A stretch of DNA of 64,000 nt from Pseudomonadota bacterium (lineage in GTDB: Bacteria; Pseudomonadota; Gammaproteobacteria; JAKAQQ01): the NCBI GenBank assembly GCA_027320085.1, contig DAHVLZ010000010.1, positions 32,001 to 96,000 on the forward strand, given 5' to 3'. This document shows, one piece after another, positions 6,382 to 64,000 of the stretch. The first letter of the stretch is position 1. Each line of letters opens with the position of its first letter. The notes beneath the pieces are model-generated. The model saw only the letters and a list, made by a program, of their open reading frames with translations. It had not been told where the DNA came from and ran no database searches. Made by a program: the position numbers and the translations under genes.

Positions 6382-7964
6382 GCACGGCGCAGCTCTGGAT
6401 CCGGGGATCCTTTCAACCGTCCGTGGATGGGGGGGACGCATTCCAGGCCTGGAATCCGGCGACCGGACGGCCGATTCTGGGCGAATACCCGATCTCCGGG
6501 GGGGGCGACCTCGAGGCCCTTCTCACGGCCGCGACCCAGGCCGCCCCCCTCCTGGCCGAAGCCGCCCCCGAAACGATTGCCCGCTTTCTCGAGGGCTACG
6601 CCCTGCGCATCGAATCCCATGCCGTGGCCCTGTCCGGGCTCGCCCACGAGGAAACCGCCCTCCCGGTCCGGCCGCGCCTGTTCGAGGTGGAGCTGCCCCG
6701 CACCCTGAAGCAGCTGCGGGAAGGTGCCCGGATCGCCCGCAGCCGGAACTGGCGGGAACCGGTGATCGACACGGCCGCCAACCTCCGCACCCAACGCGGA
6801 CCGCTCGGCAAGCCGGTCGTGATCTTCGGGCCCAACAACTTCCCCTTCGCCTTCAACGCCTTGTCCGGCAGCGACTTCGTGAGCGCCTGGGTGGCCCAGA
6901 ACCCGGTTCTGGCCAAGAGCCATCCGGGTCACCCCCATGTGACCGAGGCTTTGGCCCACCTGGCCCAGGAAAGTCTCGACGCGGCGGGACTCCCGCCGGG
7001 ATCCATCCAGCTCTGTTACGGGCTTGACGAGTCATCGGGTTTCGCGCTGGTGAGTGACCCCCGGGTCGGTGCCGTCTGTTTCACGGGAAGCCGCCCGGCC
7101 GGGCTTGCCCTCAAGGCCCATGCCGACACAGCCGGCATCCTGTTCTTCGGCGAGATGTCCTCGACCAACCCCCTCTTCATCCTGCCCGGGGCACTGGCCG
7201 AGCGCGGAGAGGCTCTGGCCTCCGAAATCGCCGCCTCCTGTCTTTTGGGATCCGGCCAGTTCTGCACCAAGCCCGGACTCCTCTTCCTGCCTTCCGGCAG
7301 AATCGCGGAGACCTGGATCGGGACCCTGACCGGTCATTTCGCCGCTGCCCCGACCGCCGTTCTGCTCGCGGACGGTGTCCGCAGACGTTTCGAGGCGGCG
7401 CTTGTGGCCTGGGAGCAGGCCGGAGCCCGGCGTCTCACCGCCCTCCGGCCGGTCACCGAGGCCGGCTTCCGGGCCCGGCCCGCACTTTTCTCGGTCGACA
7501 TCCAGACCTTCCTCGCCCACCGGGGTGAACTCGAGACGGAGGCCTTCGGCCCGGCCGCCCTCGTCGTCCACGGGATCGATCCCGGCGAGATGCCCGGGGT
7601 CGCTCACAGACTCGAAGGCCAGCTCACGGCGACCCTCCTCACCGCTCACGACGGCGCGGACGAGGATTTCTACACCCCCCTGGCCGCCGTGCTCCGGAGC
7701 CGGGCCGGCAGGCTGCTCAACGACAAGATGCCGACGGGCGTCCTGGTCTCCCCGGCCATGAACCATGGAGGGCCGTTCCCGGCCACGAACCAGCCCGGTT
7801 TCACGTCGGTGGGACTGCCCGGCGCGATCCGGCGTCTCACCGCGCTTCACTGCTACGACGGCATCCGGCCCGGACGTCTTCCGGCCGAGCTCGGCAACCC
7901 CAACCCCGTTCCGGGACTCTGGCGGCTGGTCGACGGCACCTGGACCGACCGGGATATCGACTGA
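6378..7964 (+). CDS. Aldehyde dehydrogenase, probable alpha-ketoglutaric semialdehyde dehydrogenase
   Basis: NFPFAF, FTGS, GEMSSTNP, GQFCTKPG, EAFGP, HGGPFPAT. Confidence 0.88.
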   Translation: MSTAQLWIRGSFQPSVDGGDAFQAWNPATGRPILGEYPISGGGDLEALLTAATQAAPLLAEAAPETIARFLEGYALRIESHAVALSGLAHEETALPVRPRLFEVELPRTLKQLREGARIARSRNWREPVIDTAANLRTQRGPLGKPVVIFGPNNFPFAFNALSGSDFVSAWVAQNPVLAKSHPGHPHVTEALAHLAQESLDAAGLPPGSIQLCYGLDESSGFALVSDPRVGAVCFTGSRPAGLALKAHADTAGILFFGEMSSTNPLFILPGALAERGEALASEIAASCLLGSGQFCTKPGLLFLPSGRIAETWIGTLTGHFAAAPTAVLLADGVRRRFEAALVAWEQAGARRLTALRPVTEAGFRARPALFSVDIQTFLAHRGELETEAFGPAALVVHGIDPGEMPGVAHRLEGQLTATLLTAHDGADEDFYTPLAAVLRSRAGRLLNDKMPTGVLVSPAMNHGGPFPATNQPGFTSVGLPGAIRRLTALHCYDGIRPGRLPAELGNPNPVPGLWRLVDGTWTDRDID

Positions 7965-31307: not shown

Positions 31308-32041
31308 GGCTTGAGCACGAGCAGACCGTCGGCCGACCGGGACACCCAGGGTCGGTTGCTGCCCTTCGGCAGCGTGCCTGGATCGAGCTTGGCCGCCCAT
31401 GGCGACGAGGCCTCCCGGCCAAGTTGCAGGCACAGCCGCACGGTCTTGACGCTTGAGCAGTGCTGCAACAGCTCGCGCAGCACATCGGCGCGGAGGTTGT
31501 AGGTGCTTTCGATGATTTCGCGAGCTTCCTGCAAGGGCTGGCGCACGCCGACTTCGCTCAACAGTTCCAGCAATGCACGCTCCGGCGCCGACACCTGCGG
31601 CGCCCCGCTGCGCTTCTCGAAAGGGCCGACGTGCAGCAGGGCGTCCGGCTGCTCGTCAAACAGGCGCTTGCGGTGGTATTCGGCCGGAAAGCGTTGGGTG
31701 AACCATTCCGGCAGGCGGGCCGCCTTCCAGCCGTACAGTTGCAGCACGGGATGCTGCGACACGTACTGGCGCACGCCGTACCAGTCGAGGGCCGACTTGC
31801 CGCCGACGTGCATCCCTTGGATTCCGCGCTGCAACTGCAGCAGGCTGGGATGCAGGGCCGGGGCGTCATTCGGGCGGCCATACACCCCCCGGGACAGGCG
31901 CATGAGCCAACCCGCCCGGACGTAGTGGACGGCCAAGTCTGCGGAGATGCCGAGCGCCGCCAGGTCCTCTGAGGTCAGCGGTGTTCCCGGCGCCAGCCGA
32001 GTGTAGAGCGCATTTAGCTTACTTGTAGAAGTCGTAGCCAT
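31304..32041 (-). CDS. abiEi: AbiEi antitoxin
   Basis: GWLMRLSRGVY, HVGGKSAL, SAPERALLE, SVKTVRL; ATGA overlap with abiEii. Confidence 0.92.
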   Translation of the reverse strand: MATTSTSKLNALYTRLAPGTPLTSEDLAALGISADLAVHYVRAGWLMRLSRGVYGRPNDAPALHPSLLQLQRGIQGMHVGGKSALDWYGVRQYVSQHPVLQLYGWKAARLPEWFTQRFPAEYHRKRLFDEQPDALLHVGPFEKRSGAPQVSAPERALLELLSEVGVRQPLQEAREIIESTYNLRADVLRELLQHCSSVKTVRLCLQLGREASSPWAAKLDPGTLPKGSNRPWVSRSADGLLVLKP

Positions 32042-58339: not shown

Positions 58340-59185
58340 ATGTCCCCGTCGACCCCACCCTCAAGGACCCGCCCCACGGAGTGGCTGGACGGTCTGACTG
58401 CCGCTCCTGCGTGGCAGCGGGGGGTCTTTTTGTGCCTCTTCGTCCTGATCGCGCTCTGGGGCAGCATCCGGCCGGTCAGGGCCGACTACAACTGGAACGA
58501 GATCGAGGCCGACAAATCTCTCCTCACCCAAACCACCGAGTCATCCGGCCTTCAGGGTTCCGTCAACTTGGGCTATCTCGCCACCACGGGCAACAGCGTG
58601 TCGAGAAGCCTCAATGCCAAGGTTCTCATGGGCTACCGCGTGGGCCCGTGGCGGACCGATCTCAACCTGAACTGGATCCAGGCCAGTGCTGCCGGGGTTC
58701 TCTCCGACCAGAGCCGGGAAGCCAGTTCCCAGACCGACTACGACTTCAACAGTCATAACTACACCTTTCTCTATCTCGATTACCTGAATGCGCCCTTCAG
58801 CGGTTACCTCCGCCGCTACACCGAAGTTGTGGGTTACGGTCGCCGGCTCATCGCGATCCCGGGCCAGTCCCTGGATGCGGAGCTCGGTGTGGGCGCCCGC
58901 CAGACCCTGCCCACGACCGGTCCCTCGCGCAGTTCGGCCATCGAACGGTTGGCCCTGAACTACCGCTGGAGAATCAGCCGGACGAGTTCCCTGGTCGAAG
59001 GGGTGAGCCTCGCCCGCGGTACGACCAGCACCTACTCGGAATCCAGTACCTCGCTCATCCTCCACGTCGCGGGCAACCTGGCCCTCTCGGCGTCCTATAC
59101 CATCTCCCATGATTCCACCGTCCCGGTGGGCTTTCTCAAGACGAACACGGAGACTTCCGTGTCGCTGATCTACAGCTTCAACTGA
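58340..59185 (+). CDS. DUF481/YdiY-like outer membrane beta-barrel (start uncertain)
   Basis: Signal-like segment, GYLATTGNS, GYGRRL, terminal YSFN. Confidence 0.8.
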   Translation: MSPSTPPSRTRPTEWLDGLTAAPAWQRGVFLCLFVLIALWGSIRPVRADYNWNEIEADKSLLTQTTESSGLQGSVNLGYLATTGNSVSRSLNAKVLMGYRVGPWRTDLNLNWIQASAAGVLSDQSREASSQTDYDFNSHNYTFLYLDYLNAPFSGYLRRYTEVVGYGRRLIAIPGQSLDAELGVGARQTLPTTGPSRSSAIERLALNYRWRISRTSSLVEGVSLARGTTSTYSESSTSLILHVAGNLALSASYTISHDSTVPVGFLKTNTETSVSLIYSFN

Positions 59186-59379
59186 ACGGGTTGCCGGGGA
59201 TCCCCACGGGATCCCGGAAACATCCGTGTTCGGGACGCGGTGGGACAGTTCGCTCGACCCGCTCCCCATTCCCGTTCCATGAGGCAAGGGTCCAGATCCG
59301 GGCAGGCTCCTCCTGGTTTGCCGGGGCGAGCCGGTTCGGCGATAATTCGGGGCTTGGATGTTCTCCAGGATGGTGGCCT

Positions 59380-59466
59380 GCCGGGGTGGCGGAACTGGTA
59401 GACGCGCCGGACTCAAAATCCGGTTGGGGAAACCCAGTGAGGGTTCGATTCCCTCCCCCGGCACCA
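59380..59466 (+). tRNA. tRNA-Leu(CAA), intron-less
   Basis: Cloverleaf with long variable arm; CCGGA-CTCAAAA-TCCGG anticodon arm; GTTCGA; CCA end. Confidence 0.97.
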
Positions 59467-59743
59467 AGAGGCTTTCTCACTCACTCCCGCTCTGTCTAAT
59501 ACCATATAAGAATCATAGCGTTATGTTTATACAAGATGGAATAGAATCCTTCCAGACCTTGCGGGAGCATTCCAGTTGGAGGCATCCTCTGATGCGCGTG
59601 ATTCAAAATCTAAAATATAGAAATCAAAAGCAATAGTAAATCCTTCCTCTACAAATAGTTATTTACAGAATCTCGATTTGTGATATCCATACACAACTCT
59701 TTCACAGTTTCACACTTTTGAGAGAGTTTGGGAGGATATTCCC

Positions 59744-60969
59744 GTGGCCGAACACCACACCATTCTCGGCGGCAAAGTCCACGTGTACATGCGGCCCAAC
59801 AGCAGCCACTGGCAGTGCTCCACCTACCTCGCGGGCAAGAACCGGCGTCTCAGCACGAAAGACGACAGCCTCGCGAGGGCCAAGGAGATTGCCGAGGACT
59901 GGTATCTGCAACTGCGCGGCAAGCTCCGGAGCGGCGAAATCAAATCCGAAAAGACCTTCGGCGAAGCGGCGGAGCAGTTCCTCCGCGAATATGAAATCAT
60001 CTGCGCATGAGCGCGCACCTCGTCCCCTTCTTCGGGAAGATGGGCCTCTCCGAGATCACCTCCGGAACGGTGCAGGAATACAGAATCCACCGGCTGCAGC
60101 AGGCGATGAAGAAGTTCAACAAGCCGCCCGCCCGCAGCACCATTCACCAGGAAATCGTTTGCTTGCGGCAGGCCCTCAAAACAGCTATCCGCCACGGATG
60201 GCTGGACCGCCTGCCGGACCTCTCGGAACCCTATAGGGCTTCCGGCAAAATCTCGCACCGGACATGGTTTTCGCCGGAGGAATACAAGAAGCTCTACGAG
60301 GCCACGCGCGAGCGCGCGCACCATCCGCTCAATCCCCGCTATCAGTGGGAATCAGAACAGATGCATGATTATGTTCTGTTCATGGCGAATACGGGTCTGG
60401 GCCCCGACGAGGCCCGGCGTCTCCAGTTCCGCGATGTCACCATCGCAAAGGATGACGGCCTCAAGAAAGAAATCCTGGAAATCGAGGTTCGGGGCAAGCG
60501 CGGCGTCGGCTATTGCAAGAGTATGCCGGGCGCCGTGGTTCCCTTCGAGCGCCTCAAGGCGCGCAATGTTGAAAAGCGCAAGCAGGAAGCGGAGAAGGCG
60601 GCACGGAAAGCCGGGGCCGCTCCGCAGGCGAACGGCCAGACGGGAGCGAGCAAGGAACCTGATCCCACCGACCTGCTTTTTCCGAAGTCCCATCGGGAGC
60701 TGTTCAATGCCATTCTGGATGAACAGGCACTCAAGACCGACCGGGAGGGCCAGCCGCGCACGGCCTACAGCCTGCGCCACACCTACATCTGCCTGCGACT
60801 GATGGAAGGGGCCGACATCTACCAGATCGCCAAGAACTGCCGCACCAGTGTCGAGATGATCGAAAAATACTACGCCTCCCACATCAAGAACAGCCTCGAC
60901 GCAGCGGCGATCAACGTGATGAAACCGAAACGGCCCAAAGAGAAGCAAAATAAAAACGACGAGAAATAA
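59744..60969 (+). pseudogene. Tyrosine recombinase/integrase, split and catalytically damaged
   Basis: Arm-binding ORF 59744-60010 and catalytic ORF 60007-60969 in different frames; TGLGPDE (expected TGLR), YSLRHTY, IEKYY. Confidence 0.88.
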
Positions 60970-61029
60970 ACGCGCAGCCCGAAGTCACCGTGCCTTCTTT
61001 GCGCGACTGGGTTATTATTTGAATGGTGT

Positions 61030-61350
61030 GCCGGCGTGGCGGAATGGCAGACGCGGCGGACTCAAGCCAGAATTGAGTGCTCGCCGGGAAACCGGCGATG
61101 CAGAACTGCTCAAAGTCGGGGAAGCCTGAAATGGTAATCCCGAGCCAAGCCTGAACGGACAGTTCAGGAAGGTGTAGAGACTAGACGGGCAGCACCTAAC
61201 CTCCGAATTCTCCGGAGCACGGTGAAGGGATAGTCCAGACCACAAACTTCCGTGAAGGCTCCTGCCTGACGGAAGGCGGCGAAAGCCGTAGAGGCAAGAA
61301 AATCCGCTGGGCGCAAGCCCGTGTGGGTTCGACTCCCTCCGCCGGCACCA
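61030..61350 (+). tRNA. tRNA-Leu(CAA) interrupted in the anticodon (exons 61030-61063 and 61299-61350)
   Basis: Joined exons give an 86-nt Leu-type cloverleaf with GCGGA-CTC^AAAA-TCCGC and a CCA end. Confidence 0.92.
61064..61298 (+). ncRNA. Group I intron (IC3-like), 235 nt, no ORF
   Basis: P1 ACTCAA/TTGAGT; core GAAGGTGTAGAGACTAGACGG...CACCTAA...GGTGAAGGGATAGTCC; GAAA tetraloops; terminal G. Confidence 0.93.
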
Positions 61351-61659
61351 ACTTTCCTTTGCCGTCGCTTCGGAGCCGAAAAGACCGCGGGTCACCATGA
61401 ATCCGCTTCGGCGTAGGGGATGGCACCGTCCTGCGCAGGGCAATTTCCTTAAGTTTCCGTACGCCGGGGAAAAAGCGGGACAGTTGCTCCCGCCCCGGCA
61501 GCATAGGATGGAACCATCCGGTGTTTCTCTGTTCAGAAACCACGCTGCTTGCTGCAACATTCGCACTGGCTATCCGTTGGATATCTCCTGCAGAGAACGT
61601 GCGGTCGTCAGAGACCGAGTACGCCCTCACGTGCGAAAGATTTACCAGCCGACCAGGAA

Positions 61660-61950
61660 CTACTTCTTGCCGCAGGTCTGGCTCACATTAGCAGACACGA
61701 GTGTATAAGAGTCGATCTCTAGAGATTTGCCCGTCTTCCCATTGTGTTTCTTGCAAAGCGGAACAATGTACCAGCTCTTGTCAGTGGCACTGTCCTTCTG
61801 GACGTGGGCGCCCACCAGGTCTATTTCAAAGCATTTTTCTACAGGGCAGTATGTGGGAACGGTCCCGCCGCCGAATTTCTTCCAATGATCGAGCCAGCTA
61901 CCGCACTTGCATGTATTGTCGCTCGTACCGTTAACGTTGATTACCTTCAT
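61660..61950 (-). CDS. Small Cys/His-rich protein, HNH (beta-beta-alpha-Me)-like
   Basis: GGAG RBS; CKC, C-x4-C, GAHV...IVPLCKKHN. Confidence 0.7.
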   Translation of the reverse strand: MKVINVNGTSDNTCKCGSWLDHWKKFGGGTVPTYCPVEKCFEIDLVGAHVQKDSATDKSWYIVPLCKKHNGKTGKSLEIDSYTLVSANVSQTCGKK

Positions 61951-61997
61951 GATGTTCTCCTTATGAGTCGATGTCTCCCGCGATCAGGCGGGCAGCC

Positions 61998-62348
61998 TTA
62001 GCCGCCCTCTTTCACGTTGCAGCCGTTTGGCGTATAGGCATCCGTATAGTGCGCCAGAAGGTCAGCCTCCTCGGCGATCCGATCTTTCTCTTTTGTGTTG
62101 AGGTGGACATGGACGTGGGTTGCGCCTTTTCTCTTGATACACGCCGCTTGATGATGGTCGTCGCTGACCCTGTCTGCCAAGTCACCCTCACCAATGTAGA
62201 TGGGAACCCATAGGCCTTTGTCGTTCTTCTTTGAAAAGATGTAATTGCCGTCTTGATTGGCGTTGAAGTCGGCAGGCAGCTCCCAAATGAAGTACGTATA
62301 TTTTGTGCTGCTCGCGCCGGTCCAACTACATTTCTTATGCTCAGCCAT
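61998..62348 (-). CDS. Small GIY-YIG-like protein
   Basis: GNYIF...IYIGE..LADR...HH...EEADL...CN; GGAG RBS. Confidence 0.75.
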   Translation of the reverse strand: MAEHKKCSWTGASSTKYTYFIWELPADFNANQDGNYIFSKKNDKGLWVPIYIGEGDLADRVSDDHHQAACIKRKGATHVHVHLNTKEKDRIAEEADLLAHYTDAYTPNGCNVKEGG

Positions 62349-62537
62349 GTCGATTCTCCCGTTCCTGATTCTCCAGCCTTTGCGAACGATCGCGGTAGCG
62401 GGCTGCAATCAACCCGAGCACATTTTACCATGAATTGCCACTTCTGATATGGGCAAGCAGCATGCACGAGCTGCAAACACGTTGGCAACTATTGCAATTG
62501 GGAATTGTTCATCGTATGCTGGCTATGTAATCGTTCC

Positions 62538-62918
62538 ATGGACAAGAATTTCTACCTCCGTTTCGGCCAGATGCTCCGGGAAGCGCGCAAGGCTTCCGGG
62601 TTGTCGCAAGAGGACCTGGGCAAGTCTGTCGGCCTCAACAGAACATCGGTCAGTAATATCGAAAAGGGCCGTCAGAAAATTCTGCTCCACACGTTCTGTG
62701 AGTTATTGAGGGTATTGAACGTAGGGCCACGCGACCTGATTCCCTTGCCGGTTGAGAAAAAGCCGCCCGCCAATCCTGATCTGAGCGGATACCGGCCGGC
62801 TGTGCGTGCCTTCATCGCAAGGGGCATCGGCCTGCAATCGAGAGAGGAGTCGAAGAGTAAATCCAATGTCAATTCGCCGCTTCAAGATTCAGAAGCTCGT
62901 AAGCGAGTTGCTCGATGA
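62538..62918 (+). CDS. XRE-family HTH regulator
   Basis: LSQEDLGKSVGLNRTSVSNIEKGRQ. Confidence 0.92.
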   Translation: MDKNFYLRFGQMLREARKASGLSQEDLGKSVGLNRTSVSNIEKGRQKILLHTFCELLRVLNVGPRDLIPLPVEKKPPANPDLSGYRPAVRAFIARGIGLQSREESKSKSNVNSPLQDSEARKRVAR

Positions 62919-63402
62919 GTTCGAAATAGCGGAACCACCCGTCCCGGTGCGGAAGCTTGCACGCGGCCGCGGCGCCCGGATATTCCTGGAAGGCCAGGAA
63001 GGCGATCTGTCTGGGTTCCTGTTCAGGCGCGAAAAAGAGATCATCATTGGCGTCAATACGAATCAGGCCCCCATTCGCCAGCGGTTCACCATAGCGCATG
63101 AATTGGGGCACTTGCTGCTTCATGATTTGGATGATCTGCATGTGGACCACGGGTTCGTGGTACGGTTGCGCAGCGATGTATCGAGTCTCGGCCTTGACGA
63201 GGCAGAAATGGAGGCCAACCGGTTCGCGGCGGAACTCTTGATGCCGACGCGGCTCCTGAAGGAAGATCTGGAAGGTACGGAGCTGGACTTGACGAATGAC
63301 CAGACGTTTCGGTCTCTGGCCAAGCGTTACGGCGTCAGCGCGCAGGCTTTGGCCATTCGGCTTACTGGCTTGGGATATCTGCCAACCGTAGAGACTGCCT
63401 GA
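62866..63402 (+). CDS. ImmA/IrrE-family metallo-endopeptidase
   Basis: RQRFTIAHELGH (HExxH), EMEANRFAAELLMP. Confidence 0.94.
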   Translation: MSIRRFKIQKLVSELLDEFEIAEPPVPVRKLARGRGARIFLEGQEGDLSGFLFRREKEIIIGVNTNQAPIRQRFTIAHELGHLLLHDLDDLHVDHGFVVRLRSDVSSLGLDEAEMEANRFAAELLMPTRLLKEDLEGTELDLTNDQTFRSLAKRYGVSAQALAIRLTGLGYLPTVETA

Positions 63403-63591
63403 CTATAATCGAACGGTCACCCAAGCAACGGCAGTTAGCCTATGCCCAGCATCGCCGGAATCAGCAAAGCCACAGTGTGTGACCAAGTGCGAGCGGAACG
63501 CTCCAATTCATTCGCAGCGTTAACGGGCTCCAGACTTCGCCCCCAATCCCAGCCGGTCTCCACGATCCCTTGCGCGTGACAAGTTGCGTTA

Positions 63592-64000
63592 TCACTGCTG
63601 GACGAGTGAATAGCTCGTGCTGCGTCCGCCTTCGGAACTCTGAATGAGGACGCCGTGCCCGACGAGCGCGAGAATGTCCCGGTACGCCGTGTCCTGCGAG
63701 CATTTCGCGAGTCTGGCGTATTTGGAACTCGTGAGCTTGCCTTCGAAACCGTCGAGCAGGCGGTTGATCACCAGCCGCTGACGGTCGTTGAGATGGACGT
63801 CCTTGATGCGTTCCCAGAACCGCGCTTTAGCAAGCATGCTGCTCAAAGTTTCCTGAGCCCCGTCGATGTCCCGGCCCAGACAGCCGAGGAACCATTCCAT
63901 CCAGGGCGTCACGTCCATTTTTCCTTTCTGCGTCTGTTCCAGGATGTCGTAATACGCATTCCGCTCCTGCTGGATCTGCGCGGACATGCTGTAGAAGCGC
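63592..64000 (-). CDS. Fic family protein, 3' part (paralog of 11989-13098; cut by window end)
   Basis: RFYSMSAQI...AKARF...GFEGKLT...GGRSTSY, closely similar to the first Fic. Confidence 0.92.
   Translation of the reverse strand, partial: RFYSMSAQIQQERNAYYDILEQTQKGKMDVTPWMEWFLGCLGRDIDGAQETLSSMLAKARFWERIKDVHLNDRQRLVINRLLDGFEGKLTSSKYARLAKCSQDTAYRDILALVGHGVLIQSSEGGRSTSYSLVQQ

Follow-up and report, generated by a model that had tools for sequence, protein, structure and literature searches.

Phages and genomic islands carry tRNA genes as cargo, and the genomic islands described here likewise bring a complete tRNA gene into their hosts. Unlike cargo tRNAs, this gene has the same identity as the tRNA gene that the island targets, holds a fixed place beside the integrase gene, and appears to substitute for a gene that integration destroys. 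The locus in question lies in a 64,000-nucleotide stretch of DNA, the window, which spans positions 32,001 to 96,000 of the 117-kb contig C45 (DAHVLZ010000010.1) in a 2.14-Mb gammaproteobacterial genome (G000). Near the right end of the window, a tyrosine-integrase gene stands between an intron-less tRNA-Leu(CAA) and a second tRNA-Leu(CAA) that is interrupted by a putative group I intron.

The closest described systems are the tRNA-targeting islands of the Islander and TIGER catalogues. According to the Islander report (PMC4383910), 159 of 3919 islands have a displaced 5' fragment and 2083 have a site centered on the anticodon. The islands described here share with those of that account a tyrosine integrase at the junction, crossover in the anticodon loop, a displaced fragment of the tRNA gene (tDNA), and an occurrence in tandem arrays at one tRNA (PMC4383910). 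Catalogued islands, as that report presents them, restore the split gene at one junction, whereas many members of the present family restore nothing and have fragments at both junctions. The separate, complete tRNA that members carry is a further difference from the catalogued islands as described there (PMC4383910).

The intron also has a described counterpart. Williams reported 72 Leu.3Cg introns, which have C at position −1 and interrupt tRNA-Leu(CAA), all of them in Proteobacteria (bioRxiv 10.1101/2020.01.27.920355). The window intron resembles these in its insertion site between positions 34 and 35, its lack of an open reading frame (ORF), a P1 helix formed with the 5' exon, a terminal G, and a C−1 paired with G. 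The main text of that report draws no link to integrases or islands and places the introns in Proteobacteria only, in contrast to the copies found here in Acidobacteriota, which lie beside integrases (10.1101/2020.01.27.920355). A third precedent is the proposal of Randau and Soll, summarized in PMC4090602, that introns and split genes shield archaeal tRNA genes from viral integration. Common to that proposal and to the islands is an anticodon-loop intron that destroys the target site (attB) used by integrases. In the proposal as summarized there, the shielded genes belong to archaeal hosts and their introns are spliced by proteins, whereas here a self-splicing intron of the element would shield the element's own tRNA copy (PMC4090602). 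Islands that split tRNA-Leu and bring an intron-bearing replacement were not found described in a full-text literature search, supplementary tables lying outside its scope, and the family is apparently an undescribed, widespread variant of tRNA-targeting islands.

The best explanation of the locus, to which a probability of roughly three in four is given, is that the window contains the left end of a ~21-kb island from a cross-phylum family that splits tRNA-Leu and brings a replacement. In the proposed mechanism, the tyrosine integrase of the family would recombine at the anticodon loop of tRNA-Leu(CAA or UAA) and thereby cut the host gene, leaving its 5' half ~200 nt upstream of the integrase and its 3' part 13-54 kb away. 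Neither junction would rebuild a tRNA in typical members. The island would compensate by bringing a complete tRNA-Leu, located 60-120 nt past the integrase gene, and in the commonest form the group I intron of this replacement would lie exactly within the sequence that the integrase recognizes.

The first line of evidence is the integrase family. The 320-aa ORF of the window integrase has at least 7600 homologues, the best 120 of them at 70-80% identity, from sources named as Binatia, Beijerinckiaceae, Sulfotelmatobacter, Acidobacteriota, Alphaproteobacteria, and others. The loci studied are the best 80 of 529 confirmed loci in species-representative genomes. An initial annotation of the window had suggested that its integrase could be the vehicle of the intron, and homologues of this integrase are indeed strongly associated with such tRNAs: a full intron-bearing tRNA-Leu lies directly downstream of the integrase in 34 of the 80 loci, in all cases on the integrase strand and mostly 60-120 nt away. 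An intron-less tRNA-Leu occupies the same place in 12 loci and remnants of an intron-bearing tRNA in four. When the integrase tree is rooted at its midpoint, intron-type members fall in each of its two halves, and the four states require 12 changes, compared with 37.0 in shuffles. No conserved protein gene follows the intron-bearing tRNA, the largest cluster covering 3 of the 34 loci. The tRNA-Leu module is confined to the close integrase subfamily and is absent in more distant homologues on alphaproteobacterial plasmids (53-58% identity), in a genome of the window's class (G081, 61%), and on four IMG/VR contigs. The integrase family was found in only 2 of 301 genomes of that class. An intron-type element is present in an isolate, Tunturibacter empetritectus M8US30 (locus L094). 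One locus, L072, contains a second, partial copy of the intron-bearing tRNA at 7692-7923, 2.3 kb after the first.

The same loci point to the site of recombination. The sequence GGACT(C/T)AAAATC is found in 78 of the 80 loci, 420-460 nt before the integrase part that matches the 320-aa ORF, and contig ends truncate the other two loci. This core forms the end of a recognizable tRNA-Leu 5' half in 77 of the 78, and in two of these 77 (L042 and L074) the half belongs to a whole tRNA. Repeats of the form CTTACACA...TTTCACA occur in the interval between core and integrase, at a distance of 50-75 nt ahead of the core at the far end of other elements, and, for the island of the window, before C45:112527. 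The placement of core and arm repeats identifies the predicted attachment core as the anticodon loop (GGACTCAAAATC) flanked by arm-type repeats, not the tRNA 3' end. A unit of 5' half, integrase, and whole tRNA-Leu recurs in L090 and L096 with a period of ~1.5 kb.

A comparison of the acceptor stems separates what belongs to the host from what belongs to the element. The acceptor strands of the left fragments are host-dependent (GCCGGGA, GCCCGGA, GCGGGGG, and others). The downstream tRNA has a matched acceptor pair of its own, which reads GCGGGCG/CGCCCGC in most loci and GCCGGCG/CGCCGGC in the window, L052, and L089, and its 3' acceptor strand would not pair with the left fragment. Since the matched pair is its own, both exons of the downstream tRNA are element-borne. 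The host's lost 3' part was sought in 10 intron-type elements. L085, L094, L116, L043, and L041 have, on the same strand and 25-54 kb further along, a 3' fragment whose acceptor strand is complementary to that of the left fragment, with no tRNA called; in L052 and L089, a matching fragment with arm repeats, possibly unlinked, is found elsewhere in the assembly. The intron-less pattern ACTTAAAATC...GGTTCRANTCC occurs once in four of these genomes, in the far fragment only, and the intron-bearing copy is probably their sole tRNA-Leu(UAA), within the limits set by the pattern used and by the completeness of metagenome-assembled genomes (MAGs). Split gene and replacement share an anticodon in 32 of the 34 loci (29 UAA and 3 CAA), and the window is likewise CAA/CAA. 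The exceptions are L072, where the replacement reads UAA and the split gene CAA, and L070, which is unreadable (N's). Nine Bryobacteraceae-type loci have one plain tRNA with an altered anticodon stem.

Side observations suggest that fragments and replacements also exchange sequence. In L094, L099, L107, L116, L086, and L115, the 5' exon and the host's displaced 5' half agree fully over approximately positions 8-34, while the acceptor strand is element-specific except in L115, where it is identical too. These 5' exons look like products of gene conversion between direct repeats, with selection keeping acceptor pairing. Separately, several acidobacterial genomes contain further pairs in which 4-20 kb separate a fragment of tRNA-Leu from either a whole tRNA or another fragment (G042:C1:1438012-1450674, G044:C7:80789-100388, and G318:C1:1751874-1755770), and tRNA-Leu genes in these genomes seem to have been struck repeatedly by such elements.

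An alignment of 30 intron-bearing tRNAs supports both the tRNA arms and the intron helices, with 81 consensus pairs, 36 of which show compensatory changes, and its catalytic-core stretches are invariant. P1 is formed by columns 34-38 with 50-54. At the splice site, 25 sequences have a U-G pair and five a C-G pair, the window copy being one of these five, with C−1 as the paired C; the terminal intron G (61298 in the window) is invariant in 30 of 30. The window intron is classed as a group I intron of the tRNA-Leu anticodon-loop type (Leu.3Cg) and is predicted to be self-splicing. Its tRNA aligns end to end with the homologues of L077 and L085 (nhmmer E 5e-90) and has two private deviations at near-invariant columns, which is within the range of the other 29 sequences. 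At the level of sequence, the intron-bearing tRNA is well preserved, unlike the dead integrase beside it. CAA-type intron copies are also found in the Acidobacteriota MAGs of L052 and L089, beside integrases, and the closest relatives of the window copy are intron-bearing tRNAs of Acidobacteriota MAGs (86% identity) that adjoin homologous integrases.

The features of the window locus are collected in Table 1. The initial annotation had described a host tRNA, an AT-rich spacer, an integrase, and a second, intron-bearing tRNA, and all four are present where it placed them.

Table 1. Features at the left end of the island, in window coordinates.
Feature	Position	Strand	Remarks
Host intron-less tRNA-Leu(CAA)	59380-59466 (C45:91380-91466)	+	ARAGORN; Rfam tRNA 62.3 bits
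37-nt flank F	59467-59503	+	Repeated after each of three tRNA 3'-part copies on the contig
Degenerate attachment-core relic GATGCGCGTGATTCAAAATC	59591-59610	+	Place of the displaced 5' half ending GGACTYAAAATC in family members
AT-rich arm, core to integrase	59611-59743	+	Arm-type repeat TACACAACTCTTTCACAGTTTCACAC at 59700-59725
Tyrosine-integrase pseudogene (by sequence)	59744-60969	+	Two ORFs in different frames
Island-borne tRNA-Leu(CAA), complete	61030-61350	+	ARAGORN with introns allowed; 60 nt after the integrase stop codon
5' exon	61030-61063	+	Ends with anticodon base C34
Predicted group I intron, 235 nt, ORF-less	61064-61298	+	Between C34 and A35
3' exon, AAAATCCGC ... CCA	61299-61350	+	Acceptor strand CGCCGGC complementary to GCCGGCG of its own 5' exon
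First cargo genes	61660-64000		Two small ORFs, XRE-type helix-turn-helix, M78/ImmA peptidase, start of Fic (SoFic-like); GC 0.50-0.59

The host tRNA-Leu(CAA) lies at its native locus, 3' of a DUF481 gene, and the island array starts at its 3' end. Relatives that lack the insertion, which the initial annotation had proposed looking for, exist within the genus: G001 and G002 have only the intron-less tRNA at this place, after the same DUF481 gene, and their homology to the window genome ends at the last tRNA base (it stops at 59467). The genes downstream of the tRNA in G002 are syntenic with contig C21 of the window genome, so that the island array must extend past the end of C45; no further tRNA-Leu 3' half was found at the end of C21, the native right flank. 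GC content changes from 0.65-0.73 left of the tRNA to 0.46 in 59400-59799 and to 0.50-0.60 further right.

The far end lies outside the window. A 3' half of the host tRNA is present on the same strand at C45:112527-112599, starting at GGACTCAAAATCC in the anticodon stem (69/72 identical) and preceded by the same arm-type repeats as those upstream of the integrase. A second copy at C45:114353-114419 runs from the T-arm to the 3' end and on into the 37-nt flank (60/66 identical), and ARAGORN calls no tRNA at either place. Flank F recurs at C45:114387-114419, its first 12 nt recur at C45:112588-112599, and it is absent after the tRNA in G001 and G002. Furthermore, the CTTACACA/TTTCACA motifs of the AT-rich arm also precede the far-end core, at C45:112452-112480, as well as the far ends of other elements. 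The integrase is thus flanked by a whole tRNA and a same-strand cognate fragment, the arrangement of tDNA, fragment, and integrase that defines an island in Islander, and the region is missing from the close relatives G001 and G002 and deviates in GC content. The locus forms the left end of a ~21-kb genomic island that reaches past the window, with cargo to C45:112526. This outcome bears out a second suggestion of the initial annotation, which had considered that the tRNA might be cargo of a larger island continuing rightward, a spare tRNA with a further attachment site past 64000.

Metagenomes offer a limited view of the island in its community. Contigs of four mine-drainage metagenome runs, covering 58800-62300, contain no excision or circle joint, although rare forms are invisible in contigs. 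One contig that skips from 59424 to 61319, with 10 other letters between, was considered as an excision joint and rejected, being another organism's tRNA-Leu. In these runs (X1-X4), contig depth, itself weak evidence, is lower over the island than over the core flank (16-19 compared with 28 in X1), which hints that related strains without the island share the samples.

The integrase of the window consists of two ORFs, 59744-60010 (88 aa) and 60007-60969 (320 aa). Relative to six homologues of 417-438 aa, ~18 residues are missing between EYEII and HLVPFFG, and the reading frame shifts at this gap, near 60000-60010. The catalytic Arg of the first box, TGLRPDE, is Gly in the window copy, whereas it is invariant in 17 of 17 homologues. 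With its frame broken, ~18 residues missing, and Arg replaced by Gly, the window integrase is, judged by its sequence, an inactive pseudogene of its family. Its end branch in the family tree measures 0.35, compared with a median of 0.046. In Pfam, the window ORFs have only SAM-like N-domain matches below the cut-off; among homologues, P0099 reaches 28.1 for PF00589 (cut-off 27.1) and P0110, at 26.3, falls just short. Annotated phage integrases are found by tblastn at 27-31% identity, and no solved structure was matched by sequence with one integrase protein or a 17-row profile.

The island-borne tRNA is easily overlooked. Default ARAGORN and Rfam at the gathering score find only the host tRNA in the region and miss the gene at 61030-61350, whose two exons ARAGORN joins into tRNA-Leu(CAA) when introns are allowed. 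The same setting calls three further intron-containing tRNAs in the window genome, namely a Ser with a 248-nt insert (C7:34812-35152) and two Pro with inserts of 302 nt (C21:3147-3532) and 13 nt (C2:1608-1711). A genome-wide RF00028 search gave no group I match at any of them, and these calls are probably false.

In its present state, the window module is a fossil, with a broken integrase, an intact native tRNA, and an intron-bearing tRNA that is a redundant second copy. Since the integrase is dead and the host tRNA intact, the intron-bearing tRNA is here a redundant passenger. In typical intron-type members, each end is a fragment and the gene is not restored, whereas the left end in the window is a whole tRNA, followed in order by flank F, ~90 nt more sequence, and the degenerate core. 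That core (59600-59610) ends 397 nt before 60007, compared with 420-460 nt in the family, and the window integrase lacks ~55 nt. The relic resembles a tRNA-Leu 5' half at 24 of 41 positions and is tRNA-like only over the last ~20 nt. The possibility that the relic represents the right arm of another copy of this island, in tandem with it, was rejected, the relic being unlike the island's right arm and no arm repeats lying leftward. The best guess is that the layout arose from a tandem array, in which a later gene-restoring element similar to L042 or L074 would have rebuilt the tRNA at the left junction and then been lost almost completely. In such an array, older gene-restoring elements would have their left ends at the copies at C45:112527 and C45:114353, both of which have F behind them.

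Several findings weigh against an island family that splits tRNA-Leu and replaces it. In the window, the host tRNA is whole, which leaves nothing to replace, and the left junction is a 20-nt degenerate relic rather than a host 5' half. The intron match to RF00028 at 61054-61254 (32.4 bits, E 8.7e-6) does not reach the family cut-off of 50; it is the sole RF00028 match in the 2.14-Mb genome, and homologous introns of L077 (56.1 bits) and L085 (51.2 bits) lie above the cut-off. C at position −1, the base of the window intron, inactivates the Tetrahymena intron (10.1101/2020.01.27.920355). Most genomes in the family survey are MAGs, and 30 of the 80 loci have nothing within 4 kb downstream of the integrase. 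Some of these 30 tRNA-less loci rebuild the target, L078 and L084 supplying a promoter-proximal 5' half at the far end, and in L104 and L114 a plain tRNA-Leu precedes the far-end fragment by ~150 nt. No consistent far end was found for three of the 10 elements searched (L054, L072, and L045). Finally, the anticodon match reduces on the tree to three independent contrasts, two in the same direction, none opposite, and one without change (p 0.5).

Within the replacement explanation, the intron itself may be read in two ways. Its position, 34/35, is inside the core, and the intron may make the replacement unusable as an attachment site, to the integrase of the island itself as well as to rival elements; this idea is plausible, at a little under even odds. 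An unmasked target copy would lie ~1.4 kb from the left attachment site (attL), or from that of the free element (attP), in direct orientation, and the integrase could delete its own gene. Spliced replacements are identical to the left fragment over positions 27-41 in 11 of 31 intron-type loci and 0 of 11 intron-less loci, a comparison in which two of the 31 rows have a wrong left site and the 11 intron-less cases amount to two lineages. Speaking against a mask, plain replacement and left fragment still have the same 12-mer core in L090 and L096, and the contrast rests on two independent intron-less lineages. The full combination, a self-splicing intron that acts as an attachment-site mask in a very large cross-phylum island family that destroys host tRNA-Leu and leaves the cell dependent on the intron-bearing island copy, is a tentative claim that we hold as rather less probable than its opposite.

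Alternatively, the intron is without function of its own, having been captured by an ancestral element along with a tRNA-Leu(UAA) gene that it already interrupted, and kept because its precise loss is rare and splicing is needed. This, too, is possible, though the odds run against it. It is favored by intron-bearing tRNA-Leu genes that exist without an integrase, such as that of G017 beside queA at a native locus, and by the 72 Leu.3Cg introns of Proteobacteria (10.1101/2020.01.27.920355). Conservation of the ribozyme core would be expected under it as well, and L090 and L096 have an unmasked core. Against it stand the 11 of 31 spliced replacements that would be perfect target copies ~1.4 kb from attL or attP, compared with none of the 11 intron-less ones, and the presence of intron-type members in both halves of the integrase tree.

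Whatever its role at the attachment site, the intron would travel with the island. Islands of this kind may carry the ORF-less group I introns of tRNA-Leu from one phylum to another, and where a displaced 5' half recombines with the 5' exon, an intron could end up at a native locus, perhaps in G017. The initial annotation's suggestion that the integrase is the vehicle of the intron holds in this looser sense, in which an integrase-bearing island carries the intron, and not by way of a 1.9-kb circle. G017, a genome of the window's class but from a different family, has an intron-bearing tRNA-Leu(CAA) that is 69% identical to the window copy and adjoins queA-tgt (L010:550-868). No integrase lies upstream of it, and an ORF towards the contig end looks, in its N-terminus, like an insertion-sequence-type transposase. 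This gene may be a native intron gene or a recombinant of a displaced 5' half and an island 5' exon. In G007, which shares its family with the window genome, a contig (L014:1-140) starts within an intron-bearing tRNA-Leu, of which the 3' part is present, followed by two small ORFs that resemble a toxin-antitoxin pair; its upstream side is off the contig.

The circle just mentioned was the central proposal of the initial annotation, which held that the 24/26-bp repeats at the 3' ends of the two tRNAs would excise 1884 bp with a whole intron-bearing tRNA as attP, so that the integrase would move the intron. Such a mini-element is very improbable. The two tRNAs do flank the integrase in direct orientation with 3' ends ~93% alike, and the ~1.5-kb units of L090 and L096 make integrase-only units conceivable. 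The repeat itself is real (~25/27 bases by manual count), though it reflects ordinary homology, being the best-conserved part of two homologous genes whose exons are ~83-89% alike and whose aligned 3' parts agree at 44 of 53 positions. Acceptor and anticodon stems are self-consistent within each tRNA yet differ between them, pair 6:67 being G-C in one and C-G in the other, and therefore neither tRNA is a recombination product of the other. Each 3' acceptor strand fits its own 5' strand, which limits crossover to the last 10 identical bases, and better repeats of the host tRNA are the two copies outside the window, C45:112527-112599 and C45:114353-114419. Moreover, the core of the family is the anticodon loop in 78 of 80 loci, the right end of the island, with arm repeats, core, and host 3' half, lies 21 kb rightward, the integrase appears inactive, and the metagenome contigs, which rare forms could escape, contain no such joint.

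The cargo of the island suggests a different role for the tRNA. The island contains an XRE/ImmA pair, SoFic, a Schlafen-type ATPase, a Ppl-like ATPase, a type III restriction-modification pair, a cyclic-oligonucleotide-based anti-phage signaling system (CBASS) cyclase with a split four-transmembrane (4TM) effector, and AbiEi/AbiEii. PADLOC recognizes MTase_III (5.5e-225), REase_III, the CBASS cyclase (4.6e-123) with the 4TM effector, AbiEi/AbiEii, SoFic, and Ppl. The island is a defence island, a cluster of recognized anti-phage systems. Its 4TM effector (C45:109467-110337, L019:18467-19337) is split into overlapping ORFs of 80 and 215 aa that both match S_4TM, and the CBASS-like system may be broken like the integrase. 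In such surroundings, and redundant with the host gene as it is here, the intron-bearing tRNA could be a spare or decoy tRNA-Leu against anticodon nucleases of phages or rival systems. This is nonetheless highly unlikely, given that the tRNA is linked to the integrase and to no cargo gene, that its anticodon follows the split target, and that in other genomes it is apparently the only gene of its kind.

The least probable explanation, that both tRNAs are vertically inherited neighbors between which an integrase landed, draws on their shared tRNA-Leu(CAA) identity and ~83-89% similar exons and can be all but dismissed, as G001 and G002 have a single tRNA at whose 3' end homology stops, an intron-bearing tRNA is matched in none of three same-genus genomes and only partially in one of six same-family genomes (G007), the closest intron-bearing tRNAs (86%) adjoin homologous integrases in Acidobacteriota MAGs, and the integrase family occurs in 2 of the 301 genomes of the class.

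An island family that splits tRNA-Leu and supplies its own replacement would have consequences beyond this locus. Islands that target tRNA genes are thought to spare the target, and a family that breaks and substitutes it changes how such islands are to be detected. Default tRNA finders overlook intron-bearing tRNAs, and genomes with such islands would consequently appear to lack tRNA-Leu(UAA). The replacement would also give the island a hold on its host, where imprecise loss of the island would cost an essential tRNA. The family represents a concrete means of horizontal travel for ORF-less bacterial group I introns, and intron-carrying islands would, if the explanation is true, account for the patchy distribution of tRNA-Leu introns outside cyanobacteria. 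Finally, with these islands the question whether tRNA genes are protected from integrases by their introns could be tested in bacteria.

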